A DNA stretch of 32,000 nt, from the NCBI GenBank assembly GCA_003144275.1, contig NJBF01000001.1:150001-182000 (forward strand), given 5' to 3'. The notes under the pieces are model-generated. The model did no database searches, was not told where the DNA came from, and saw only the letters and a program-made list of their open reading frames with translations. Positions 5,028 through 17,805 of this stretch are shown one piece after another (positions within the stretch are counted from its first letter, which is position 1; each line of letters starts with the position of its first letter). Source of the DNA: Candidatus Heimdallarchaeota archaeon B3_Heim. Lineage in GTDB: Archaea; Asgardarchaeota; Heimdallarchaeia; Hodarchaeales; Hodarchaeaceae. The translations under genes and the position numbers were made by a program.

Positions 5028-5130
5028 CGGGCCCTGTGAGATTTGAACTCACGACCTCTATTGAGGGATCATATAAGGAAGGATCCTTGCTCCGGAGGCA
5101 AGCGCTCTGTCCATGCTAAGCGAAGGGCCC
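5028..5130 (-). tRNA. tRNA-Arg: tRNA-Arg(CCG) with a 28-nt non-canonical intron (5060-5087; position 41/42, ambiguous up to 43/44)
   Basis: Acceptor GGGCCCT/AGGGCCC, anticodon arm CTTGC-CT CCG GA-GCAAG, T arm GTGAG-TTCAAAT-CTCAC. Removing 28 nt restores GCAAG-AGGTC and a 75-nt tRNA. Confidence 0.93.
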
Positions 5131-5334: not shown

Positions 5335-5442
5335 TGGCGGATCCGAGGGGATTTGAACCCCCGACCTGCGACTTAGAAGGCCGCCGCTCTTTCTAGAAGC
5401 TCTAACCATGCAAAAGCTTTATCCTGGCTAAGCCACGGATCC
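5335..5442 (-). tRNA. tRNA-Arg: tRNA-Arg(TCT) with a 30-nt D-loop intron (5391-5420, ~20/21) and encoded CCA
   Basis: Acceptor GGATCCG/CGGATCC, G73, CCA; anticodon arm GCGGC-CT TCT AA-GTCGC; intron hairpin AAGCTTT/AGAGCTT. Confidence 0.93.
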
Positions 5443-15245: not shown

Positions 15246-15710
15246 TCATGATTCCTTTTCAAAAAGTTCTTTTCTAATTTTGGAACTACTCAATTTTGTA
15301 CCCTTATTTGTAGTTACAATTGCAGAAAGAATGAGAATTAACGGAGATTTTTTTAACATGTTTCTCTCGCGGTTGATGGCTAGTGCTCCCGAATATGTTT
15401 CTTGTGAAACTAGTAGTGCTAGTAAATCGGATTTGCTTGCAATTTGTCCATCTTGACCTAAAGAATCAATTTTGACAATGGAACATCTATTATTACGGGA
15501 TTTGAAATAGTTCTCGAGTGCTAAATGACGTTCGCTGAACGGAAGAATGCGATCTCCAAGCACTTTAGGGTGATTATGTAAATATTTTTCACTAATCAAC
15601 CCAATTTGGATATATTCTGAATAATGTGACGCAAGATCCAAAATTAGTTTATGACCAGAATGGAGACGATCAAAAGTTCCACCTAAACCTAATTTTTCAA
15701 ATTTGGCCAT
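15246..15710 (-). CDS. coaD: Archaeal phosphopantetheine adenylyltransferase
   Basis: GGTFDRLHSGH (HxGH), VSQET, INRER, LSSSKIR. Confidence 0.9.
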   Translation of the reverse strand: MAKFEKLGLGGTFDRLHSGHKLILDLASHYSEYIQIGLISEKYLHNHPKVLGDRILPFSERHLALENYFKSRNNRCSIVKIDSLGQDGQIASKSDLLALLVSQETYSGALAINRERNMLKKSPLILILSAIVTTNKGTKLSSSKIRKELFEKES

Positions 15711-15781
15711 AGATTGTTCTCATCATACCTATTTACTTAAGTATGATTGAATGAAATATGATTAAGAAAAGCTTTTTTATC

Positions 15782-16078
15782 GTGGGACGGGAAGTCTTCA
15801 ACGCAAGGAAGGAATATATTCTACTCTCGAGGACACGATGAGCCAAGATGATTCGGAGTGCAAATGAGTAGAGAAATCCTGAGCGGTTACTACCATATGA
15901 ATTAGGAGACGGGCTCTCGCATGAGGATGGGTGTGTCACCCAACAATGAGCGATAGGGTTAACCCTCCTAAGCGACAGGAGTAAGGGTCATAAAGCCCTT
16001 CATAAGAGAACTAGGCTGAATTTGGGATCCTCCCGTATATGTGGTCGCAGTGTTAGTGTTAAGGGCGACAGATCCAAT
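15782..16078 (+). ncRNA. Unidentified structured RNA with a K-turn and a K-loop (boundaries approximate)
   Basis: About 48% GC and 60% purine over 15781-16030 (hand count) in AT-rich intergenic DNA. K-turn CGC-AAG-GA-AGGA/UCCU-GA-GCG, K-loop CGAU-GA...GA-UUCG, several additional helices. Confidence 0.7.
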
Positions 16079-16154
16079 ATAACTTGTCAATATCTGAGTA
16101 TTTATTTTCAAAAATAAAAAGACAGGGGAGTAGGAAAATTGTTAATCCTACCTA

Positions 16155-17405
16155 CTAATCTGAATACGTATAGATTTTGATATTTAGTGGAATCTTTGTT
16201 ATATCGTGCTGTCGGGCACCAACAATGTTTTGTACACCCCGACTTGAGGCAATGTCCAACAACCTTTGGGTGATAATCCCATCAAAAATCACAGTTTCAA
16301 TATTTTCTGTGTTGAGGATTTTGTCTCGAAGATCACTGATGGGAATATTTTCCTCAATTATCTTAGAATTTTTGTCGAATAATGTTGCTTGTTGCTCAGG
16401 AAGATTTTCCACAACTTGAAGAAACTCGGGTGGTATTTTAGCTTGACTTGCTGGCTCTGATTTTCGTCTAATGACTATAGGAATTTCTTTTGTCACAAAA
16501 TCATTGTCTTCAGATTCGTCTGCAGTACTTTCTGAAAAATCATCATCCTCTGGGGTAATATTGAGCTCTTTCATAATCTGTTCAATAGGTATTTTTGTAC
16601 GAAGCGCTTTCAGTATTTCCTTACTTGATAATTCTTCAACTTCGTGGTTTGTTGGTGCTCTAGCGACGTAATCAAGATCTGCAAGGTGAATAAGTTCACG
16701 TAAAATGAGATCCCCACCATGATCCCCATCTAAAAATGCAGTTGTTACTTTTTTTCGTGTTAAATCAACAACCTCAGGTGGAACATCAGTTCCTTGCACA
16801 GAAATGACATTTCTAAATCCGTGTTTCAATAAATTAATTACATCAGCACGTCCTTCCACAATGATGAGATTATCGCTATCTAAAACCCCAGGACCTGCAG
16901 GTAATGCCGCTTTTCCAAATTTTTGGATAATACTTACTCTTGCTTCCTTCAGGACTTCATCTAAGACTGAAACTGAGTCAGGTGCAACCTCATGATCCCA
17001 TGTTTTCAAAATTCTAGAAGCACGCTGAACGATTTGTCGTCGTTTGCTCTCGCGTACGTCTTCAATCTTGAGTAGATTGATTTTTCCAACACAAGGACCA
17101 ACCCTATCGACCGTCTCTAAAGCAGCAGCAAGTAATGCTGTTTCGACACGATCCAATGATGATGGAATTATAAGTGTCCCAGTTGTTTTTCTTTGTCTCT
17201 TTTGATATTGCAGCTTTACAGCTATTCTACCTATTCTTGAAGTTTTTTGTAATTCACGTAAATCAAGCCCTTCGCCAATTAAACCTTCGGTTTGGCCAAA
17301 TAACGCGCCAATTATATCAGAGCGTTCAGCTACTCCGTTTATTGAGAATTTTTCGTGAATTAAGTATTTTACAGTACTAGTATCGATATCTTCTTCATTA
17401 GCCAT
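16155..17405 (-). CDS. dnaG: Archaeal DnaG (TOPRIM; exosome-associated)
   Basis: GALFGQTEGL, LRELQKTSRIGRI, IPSSLD, IIVEGRADV, FLDGDHGG. ATG at 17405 is preferred over GTG at 17447. Confidence 0.95.
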   Translation of the reverse strand: MANEEDIDTSTVKYLIHEKFSINGVAERSDIIGALFGQTEGLIGEGLDLRELQKTSRIGRIAVKLQYQKRQRKTTGTLIIPSSLDRVETALLAAALETVDRVGPCVGKINLLKIEDVRESKRRQIVQRASRILKTWDHEVAPDSVSVLDEVLKEARVSIIQKFGKAALPAGPGVLDSDNLIIVEGRADVINLLKHGFRNVISVQGTDVPPEVVDLTRKKVTTAFLDGDHGGDLILRELIHLADLDYVARAPTNHEVEELSSKEILKALRTKIPIEQIMKELNITPEDDDFSESTADESEDNDFVTKEIPIVIRRKSEPASQAKIPPEFLQVVENLPEQQATLFDKNSKIIEENIPISDLRDKILNTENIETVIFDGIITQRLLDIASSRGVQNIVGARQHDITKIPLNIKIYTYSD

Positions 17406-17805
17406 TGAAGTTTCATCTCCAAATTTATGCGATGAAACAACACTCACTCCTATTACGACTGCTCCACCAAATATTTGATTGAATACTCCACAGATATGTG
17501 ACTGAGTAATGATGAATGAATAATGTAATAATCATGAAATGCGGTTTCACACGCGTTTTAATGATGTTCTAGTGAACATCAGCTTATTTTTCCCCAGTTT
17601 GACTTGTTCTGTTAATTTTCGGGGAATCATTGTTTTTTGAACTGTTCTCGGAATATTTACAATTTCGAGATTTGTCCTTTGTAATGATCATTATTTCGTA
17701 AACTAAATCAAAGGACTTAATTTAATTCTTAATGCTTACGATATATTCCTAGACCAACCAATTTTTTTAATTTATGGGTACAAATTAGAGCATTGTCTGG
17801 AAATT

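Follow-up and report, generated by a model that had tools for sequence, protein, structure and literature searches.

What is encoded by the GC-rich island that lies between a cytidylyltransferase-like gene and a Toprim/DnaG gene in the genome of Candidatus Heimdallarchaeota archaeon B3_Heim? The window analysed here is a stretch of 32,000 nt (contig NJBF01000001.1, positions 150,001 to 182,000, GenBank assembly GCA_003144275.1), and coordinates given without another genome or contig are those of the window. A sequence-only reading of this DNA had proposed a novel scaffold RNA bound by L7Ae and had likened its stacked kink motifs to U3 small nucleolar RNA (snoRNA). The locus very probably encodes a stable RNA of ~270 nt that consists of three tandem box H/ACA guide hairpins. 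The evidence in hand for this reading is conservation, covariation, expression, anatomy, box spacing and complementarity. The scaffold proposal was not retained, because the three domains have H/ACA anatomy, H/ACA box spacing and the targets of a known family, and the U3 analogy gave way to the anatomy and targets of the archaeal guide RNAs Pf7, Pab40 and Afu4. A formerly unknown structured RNA thus gains a concrete, testable function.

Conservation and expression of the RNA gene

The conserved block extends from 15803 (GCAAGGAAGG) to 16075 (CAGAUCC) on the plus strand, and it is a genuine, expressed non-coding RNA gene of ~270 nt. The RNA was found by blastn in 21/21 same-genus genomes at 73-99% identity; the adjoining cytidylyltransferase protein was just 39-48% identical in most same-genus genomes, and synteny with both flanking genes was limited to the genus. 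A covariance model built on the genus alignment (R1) gave full-length matches in 15 of 31 genomes of a second family in the same class. Across the phylum it matched 69 of 151 sampled Asgard genomes, representing 26 of 53 genera, and the scores in the wider phylum often exceeded those in the sister family. The RNA gene is old and independent, and the model can be used to annotate it across the phylum. Minus-strand open reading frames that overlap the gene were without support, as the alignment contains many 1-2-nt indels. No description of this RNA was found in the literature on H/ACA RNAs or snoRNAs in Asgard archaea.

Metatranscriptomes showed that the RNA is expressed. Four runs from three studies gave one short contig each (211-264 nt), 100% identical to the window and with a depth of 35-219. 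Jointly the contigs span 15803-16066, and there was no coverage of the flanking genes. The contig ends at 15803 and 16065/16066 fall on variable alignment columns and may be assembly break points; they were not used as transcript ends. The G.U pairs of the structure favour the plus strand, because they would be A.C on the opposite strand (pair 130-176 is U.G in 16/19 sequences). Contigs that cover the RNA and not its flanks, together with these G.U pairs, bear out the earlier expectation of a structured, independently transcribed plus-strand RNA.

Three tandem hairpins with H/ACA anatomy

Support for the structure comes from comparative data and not from thermodynamic folding of one sequence. 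Single-sequence folding was no better than that of shuffled sequences (z = -0.63), and the same held for either strand. In the genus alignment, 96.3% of cells were paired, versus 30-50% when the partners were slid, and compensatory change was seen at 8 pairs, which 0/500 shuffles reached. The architecture could be read because distant homologues were compared, and it consists of three consecutive hairpins, with no helix that closes the whole RNA. Every hairpin is built from a lower and an upper stem separated by a large internal loop, followed by a GA-rich motif of the kink-turn (K-turn) or K-loop type and by an apical stem-loop. Nowhere is the RNA better conserved than in the internal-loop strands, which are near-invariant; the lower stems differ wholly in sequence between lineages, with the pairing always kept. 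When single hairpins were aligned across families with MAFFT (A4, A5), the lower-stem strands shifted by at least one column, and helices were therefore tabulated per sequence, with no formal cross-family pair count.

An ANA or ACA box stands 3' of each lower stem, 14-16 nt past the 3' pocket strand. The published spacing rule for archaeal H/ACA guides is 14/15 nt (PMC4652768) or n+15 (PMC7075261). In stem and loop size the hairpins agree with the published RNAMOT descriptor, which asks for a lower stem of at least 7 bp, 5-11 nt on each strand of the internal loop and an upper stem of at least 5 bp (Muller et al. 2008, PMC2377435). Beyond the hairpins, GGGUC (15985-15989) pairs with the GAUCC of the 3' tail (16071-75); this helix was 100% paired with one compensatory change.

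All features described below are on the plus strand. Hairpin 1 (15819-15876) is made of a lower stem (15819-26/15866-73), the 5' guide UCGAGG (15827-32), an upper stem with a K-loop (15833-59), the 3' guide GCAA.. (15860-65) and the ANA box AAA (15874-76). Its lower stem measures 6-10 bp and its pocket strands 5-9 and 6-8 nt. AAA, AUA or ACA follows exactly 14 nt past GCAA in 25/25 aligned RNAs, free of gaps, and in 5/5 other families. The K-turn is clear in the Asgard family f3, where a lower stem of 6-8 bp, pocket strands of 7 and 6-8 nt and an upper stem of 7 bp are followed by a K-turn (..CU-AGA-G.. / ..UAG-GA-A-AG..). In this genus, the upper stem has 4-5 bp, and GA-rich, near-invariant UGAUGA-type motifs stand at the expected K-turn site in a register that is not fixed.

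Hairpin 1 is clamped by an outer box C/D-like K-turn. Its box C-like strand (GC-AAG-GA-AGG, 15803-15812) forms the 5' end of both the conserved block and the contigs, and its box D-like strand (CC-U-GA-GC, 15878-15884) lies directly 3' of the ANA box. The genus consensus is GC-NNK-GA-AGG / CC-N-GA-GC. The motif also occurs in five other Asgard families, with a box C strand like RUGAUGR, and is absent in family f3. It had been argued that this domain is not an ordinary C/D methylation guide, and this was correct: the 58 nt between the boxes are hairpin 1, with strands that pair with each other.

Hairpin 2 (15902-15977) has the lower stem UUAGGAG/CUCCUAA (15902-08/15965-71), the 5' pocket strand ACGGGC (15909-14), an upper part with a GA/GA motif and the apical stem UGGGUG/CACCCA (15915-60), the 3' guide AACC (15961-64) and an ACA box (15975-77). 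The lower stem is 6-9 bp long and fully covarying between lineages, in which it reads UUAGGAG/CUCCUAA, CUACCA/UGGUAG, AGCCUAUCA/UGAUAGGCU, GCCCAC/GUGGGC or UUCCGCUA/UAGCGGGA. The box stands exactly 14 nt past AACC in 28/28 RNAs (ACA in 27, AUA in 1). A conserved GGNCUCU in this hairpin can pair with AGRGUC within the hairpin.

Hairpin 3 (15995-16070) is formed by the lower stem GCCCUU/AAGGGC (15995-16000/16061-66), the 5' pocket strand ..AAGAGAAC (16001-11), an upper stem with a GA-type internal loop and a variable apical hairpin (16012-51), the 3' guide GUUAG.. (16052-60) and an ACA box (16068-70). The lower stem is 6-14 bp and the upper stem 4-8 bp long, and the K-turn in family f3 is CUGA / AUGAUG. 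ACA stands 14-16 nt past GUUA in this genus and in four other families.

Comparison of homologues changed part of the fold that had been drawn from the single sequence. The 5' arm of the proposed closing helix ACGGGA/UCCCGU falls before the conserved block starts; this helix is not conserved, nor is the proposed GUCGC/GCGAC hairpin. Two local hairpins were replaced by other pairings: in place of CUCCU/AGGAG, CUCCUAA pairs with the upstream UUAGGAG (covariation GC:11, AU:4, GU:4), and in place of AAGGG/CCCUU, GCCCU pairs with the downstream AGGGC. Other proposed elements stood. The helix UCUACUC/GAGUAGA is real and covaries, with one pair changed on both sides in 9/19 sequences, and the hairpin UGGGUG/CACCCA likewise covaries. 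The apical GA-rich UGAUGA-type motif of the first domain is nearly invariant, and the strands of its K-turn (15803-12/15878-84) are conserved in the genus. The RNA does carry motifs of the K-turn type that L7Ae recognises.

Predicted targets in 23S rRNA

The complete large-subunit (LSU) ribosomal RNA (rRNA) of genome G028, which has a homologue of the RNA, was searched together with the small-subunit (SSU) rRNA of G000, and further with LSU fragments of the same-genus genomes G004 and G007 and of three other Asgard genomes, G083, G114 and G100. Target positions were converted onto the real E. coli 23S rRNA. Scoring was done on genome G028 with the pocket geometry fixed and with 300 shuffled guides per hairpin. 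The top site in the G028 LSU was 2985 for hairpin 1 (E. coli 2496), 3075 for hairpin 2 (E. coli 2586) and 2021 for hairpin 3 (E. coli 1915); their scores were reached by 6/300, 224/300 and 15/300 shuffled guides, respectively. Pseudouridines at the three predicted Asgard sites would stand at positions that are modified in eukaryotes too.

The guides (UA)UCGAGG and GCAA of hairpin 1 pair with 5'-UUGC-U-N-CCUCGAU by 4 + 6-8 bp, and the target U is the equivalent of E. coli LSU 2496, the last position of helix 89. The pairing was made by homologous guide columns in 28/28 RNAs. The unpaired N is A in G028 and U in G007, with constant pairing arms. The 2496-equivalent position is predicted as the target of hairpin 1 with high confidence.

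The AACC(C) of hairpin 2 pairs with GGGUU directly 5' of LSU U2586 in the target 5'-GGGUU-U-A-GACCGU, a site that ranks first. The 3' guide is longer (AACCCAG) in three other Asgard families and makes 7 bp with CUGGGUU. The length of this arm is 5-7 bp. With moderate confidence, hairpin 2 is predicted to target U2586 at the base of helix 93. A site in domain II, at G028 1121/1122, was tried as its main target and rejected; the rRNAs of G000 and family f8 differ there, with the guide constant, and the register and box distance shift as well. As a separate observation, the LSU of G007 (contig C8, L066) has an insertion of ~330 nt near E. coli ~2578, between GGGAACGUGA and CUGGGUUUAG, which is probably an intron and precedes the predicted target of hairpin 2 by a few bases.

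The GUUA of hairpin 3 pairs with UAAC, which directly precedes U1915 of the helix 69 (H69) loop, and the 5' pocket strand pairs and co-varies with the 3' strand of H69. In family f3, H69 reads GCUAAC-UA-UGAGCUU and the guide GUUAGC / AGCUCA, with 4-6 + 6-10 bp at the top site. In this genus and in families f8 and f20, H69 reads AGUAAC-UA-UAACUCUCUU and the guide GUUAG / (U)GAGAGA; the pocket of 5-6 unpaired nt in this second group recalls the 'UNUN' pocket of Haloferax SL2. Mismatch-tolerant scans of the genus hairpin 3 against the same-genus LSU fragments and the SSU gave no convincing alternative target, and the best alternative matches lay in AU-rich non-rRNA or intron sequence. A pairing of the genus hairpin 3 with GCUGGUUC (E. 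coli ~810) was rejected, as it makes just 4+4 bp on the rRNA of G000. U1915 in the H69 loop is predicted as the target of hairpin 3 with high confidence, and U1917 is perhaps a target too.

The H69 regions themselves gave several further observations. Helix 69 is GGGAGUAACUAUAACUCUCUUAAGG in this genus (G004, L067:~1000-1040) and in families f8 and f20 (L081/L083), and GGAGCUAACUAUGAGCUUCUUAAGG in the sister family f3. The 3' strand of this genus-type H69, which in this genus is ACUCUCUUAAGG, resembles the eukaryotic one. The LSU of family f8 diverges directly after H69, where CUCUUAA is followed by CGGGAAAUC, which suggests a further insertion. G001 has two LSU H69 regions, GGGGGUAACUAUGACCCUCUUAAGG and the genus-typical one (L068 on C57 versus L070 on C38), suggesting contamination or a second rRNA type in the bin.

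Protein binding and the pseudouridines themselves are predicted from the sequence. Each hairpin would assemble with Cbf5, Nop10, Gar1 and L7Ae, with L7Ae sitting on the apical K-turn or K-loop. The strands of the internal loop would pair with 23S rRNA on both sides of one uridine, and Cbf5 would isomerise this flanked uridine to pseudouridine. Hairpin 1 would modify the 2496-equivalent U of the peptidyl-transferase ring, where helix 89 ends, hairpin 2 would modify U2586 at the base of helix 93, and hairpin 3 would modify U1915 in the H69 loop, and perhaps U1917. This genome has genes for Cbf5 (426 bits) and Nop10 (43 bits).

Relationship to the Pf7/Pab40/Afu4 family

Pab40 (also HgcG, Rfam family RF00064), Pf7, Pho40 and Afu4 have three H/ACA motifs each (PMC2377435, PMC2584109). 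Motif 1 guides Pab pseudouridine 2588 in helix 89 (PMC2377435), motif 2 of Afu4 and Pf7 guides a U that is a pseudouridine in Haloarcula (Hm 2621), and motif 3 guides the conserved H69 loop pseudouridine, Pab 2016 (PMC2377435, PMC2584109). Halobacteria keep stems II and III as sR-h45 (PMC7075261, PMC2584109). Pab2588 was equated with E. coli 2496 because Pab2678 equals E. coli 2586, an offset of 92, and this equivalence agrees with the placement of pseudouridine 2588 in helix 89 (PMC2377435).

Since the number of hairpins, the three targets and their order are the same, the RNA is assigned as an Asgard member of this family, and descent from a common ancestor is the probable explanation. The sequence is too diverged for the Rfam model RF00064, and current Rfam models wholly miss the Asgard RNA. 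If descent is common, a three-guide H/ACA RNA for the peptidyl-transferase centre and helix 69 has been kept from Euryarchaeota to the Asgard relatives of eukaryotes. An H/ACA RNA of independent Asgard origin, or one with re-targeted hairpins whose match to the Pf7 targets is convergent, appears unlikely. Such an origin would fit the lack of detectable sequence or covariance-model similarity to RF00064, the recurrence of H69 and peptidyl-transferase-centre uridines as targets in all domains, and the strong difference in the hairpin 3 guide that sets family f3 apart from other Asgard lineages. However, Thermococcales and Archaeoglobus have an equal number of hairpins and the same 5'-to-3' order of targets, stems II and III of Halobacteria follow that order too, and a covariance-model miss is expected because guide RNAs evolve fast outside the guide elements.

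Known RNA families and alternative explanations

At gathering thresholds, Rfam gave no relevant match on the RNA. The cmscan search of 15650-16200 against 4227 Rfam families at E≤10 returned chance snoRNA-like matches only, and the C/D matches on the RNA were far under threshold. A significant match to a known family had been named beforehand as an outcome that would refute a novel RNA; such a match was obtained by anatomy and targets, and was not obtained by Rfam score.

The RNA is not a signal recognition particle (SRP) RNA, in agreement with the sequence-only reading: there was no RF01857 match at this locus, and the SRP RNAs of relatives lie at a separate one. In three same-genus genomes, the SRP RNA was apart from this RNA (for example, at 678584 versus 2318437 in G009). 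These SRP RNAs were located at G009:C1:678584-678890, G015:C1:153203-153509 and G007:C52:297893-298199. They scored 70-79 bits, below the RF01857 cut-off of 96.5, so that standard annotation would miss them. No SRP RNA was found in the G000 assembly.

Several observations speak against the H/ACA assignment or some part of it. The target statistics are modest for each hairpin, and the hairpin 2 site is not significant alone. Hairpin 2 has a weak 5' arm, in which G-C is followed by an A.G mismatch and by 2-4 bp, and in one genome, G028, the rival site in domain II gives a better pairing, of 14 bp. Hairpin 3 of this genus is without a canonical 'UN' pocket on H69 and leaves 5-6 target bases unpaired, and hairpin 3 of family f3 is without a clear ACA box. 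The upper stem of hairpin 1 is short in the genus (4-5 bp), and its K-loop register is ambiguous. RF00064 was absent from the cmscan results at E≤10, and the equivalence of Pab2588 with E. coli 2496 rests on an offset inferred from the papers, not on alignment. Gar1 was undetected by the Pfam model, in a genome that is 94% complete and with a model that missed the Sulfolobus control too. The metatranscriptome contigs are silent on the strand and on the exact RNA ends.

Part of this list would suit a new L7Ae-bound scaffold or processing RNA that does not pseudouridylate, for instance a pre-rRNA chaperone like U3 or snR30. The pairing of the genus hairpin 3 with both flanks of the H69 loop is non-canonical, and in hairpin 2, with its weak 5' arm, the conservation of GGNCUCU exceeds what target pairing explains. 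The RNA also has several K-turn-like motifs, and the outer box C/D-like K-turn around hairpin 1 is kept across Asgard families. We nevertheless consider a scaffold role quite improbable: ANA/ACA boxes stand at exact H/ACA spacing in three hairpins, the three best sites are the targets of a characterised H/ACA family, and long antisense elements to pre-rRNA spacers were not seen. Harder still to credit, to the point of being almost inconceivable, is a divergent relative of RNase P or MRP RNA. The size of the RNA (~280 nt), the K-turns, which archaeal RNase P RNA also has, and a purine-rich AGAGAAC followed by a GGCU-like segment, which faintly recalls conserved region V (CR-V), could be read in that sense. 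The genome, however, has a bona fide RNase P RNA of its own elsewhere (C91:21523-21882, 128 bits, cut-off 84), and cmscan gave no match to RNase P RNA (RF00373) or MRP RNA at this locus even at E≤10. The fold has three independent hairpins without P1/P2 closure or a long-range P4, and the closing helix is not conserved. The sequence-only reading had also excluded RNase P RNA, and the three-guide H/ACA RNA remains the preferred interpretation.

Genomic context and additional observations

The island lies between the cytidylyltransferase-like gene (15246-15710, minus strand) and the Toprim/DnaG gene (16155-17447, minus strand). The GC content is 0.46-0.49 over 15775-16074 and 0.31-0.37 in the flanks, and both GC skew and AT skew are positive across 15775-16074, in agreement with the GC-elevated, purine-skewed island described before. 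A T-rich, TATA-like box, TTTTTTAT (15773-15780, plus strand), lies ~27 nt 5' of the conserved block. A T-rich box occurs at an equal offset in nearly all same-genus homologues, which upholds the TATA-like upstream element that had been suggested. At the other end, the 3' tail (16071-16078, plus strand) has GAUCC, after which conservation stops; T-rich runs follow 3' in many relatives. Elsewhere in the window, Rfam identified tRNA genes at 5028-5130 and 5346-5401 (minus strand), one of which has an insertion of ~29 nt in the variable/T-arm region and is intron-bearing. Intron-containing tRNAs of this kind mark the window as archaeal.

Two unusual copies of the RNA were noted. In one same-genus genome, a partial second copy of ~184 nt (G008:C251:1334-1517, L032:614-797; 95.6 bits), comprising mainly hairpin 3, sits ~0.9 kb from the full copy. 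In the copy at G010:C13:185822-186142 (L051), ~40 nt are inserted between hairpin 2 and hairpin 3.

The 23S rRNA of G000 is not assembled whole. Contig C88 (1-1144) has 16S and then just the first ~1150 nt of 23S. A 23S 3' fragment of ~300 nt with the sarcin-ricin loop occurs three times on C65 (~87, 3796 and 12705, minus strand) and once on C9 (~43). C65 is a 15-kb contig of low GC content, and its repeated 3' rRNA fragments are odd.

Comparison with known guide RNAs

Like Pf7, Pab40, Pho40 and Afu4, which have three tandem H/ACA hairpins in one transcript of ~230-280 nt, the Asgard RNA is a single transcript of three such hairpins. Compared through the published targets, it shares with Pf7, Pab40 and Afu4 the order of targets (the end of helix 89, the 2586 equivalent, the H69 loop), the ANA boxes at 14-15 nt, and a putative apical K-turn or K-loop. 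It differs from them in being ~40 nt longer and in having no RF00064 match. A box C/D-like K-turn encloses its hairpin 1, the 3' tail pairs back upstream of hairpin 3, and in the genus the hairpin 3 pocket has 5-6 unpaired H69 bases.

Pab21/snoR9 of Pyrococcus also joins an H/ACA hairpin and a C/D-type K-turn in one RNA (PMC2377435, PMC4652768). There, the C/D part is a guide in its own right, placed 3' of the H/ACA hairpin, whereas the C/D-like boxes of the Asgard RNA close around the foot of hairpin 1, with no methylation guide left free. The eukaryotic snR191/U19 (SNORA74), compared by description, likewise guides two H69 loop pseudouridines (PMC2584109), at uridines that are universally conserved, but it has a hairpin-hinge-hairpin-tail form with H and ACA boxes, and Nhp2 in place of a K-turn-bound L7Ae.

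Neither the outer C/D-like K-turn nor the enlarged H69 pocket makes a new class; both are small variations. It is doubtful that the K-turn around hairpin 1, kept in most of the Asgard lineages sampled, turns the RNA into a composite C/D-H/ACA ribonucleoprotein. Were this so, the eukaryotic small Cajal body RNAs (scaRNAs), until now the only RNAs with such mixed domains, would have a precursor in prokaryotes, and hairpin 3, whose 5-6-nt pocket spans U1915 and U1917 in lineages with a eukaryote-like H69, would be the direct ancestor of the snR191/U19 dual guide.

In pairing, the Asgard RNA also resembles sR-h45 of Haloferax volcanii. The latter differs in having two hairpins with a 56-nt linker and none for the 2496-equivalent site. 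Its stem-loop 1 (SL1), an experimentally proven guide, directs pseudouridine 2605 (GGGUU-U-A, the context of E. coli 2586) through 3+5 bp, with AUA as its box (PMC7075261), and resembles Asgard hairpin 2 in making few base pairs on the same uridine. Its stem-loop 2 (SL2) guides both H69 pseudouridines through an enlarged 'UNUN' pocket and resembles Asgard hairpin 3 (PMC7075261).

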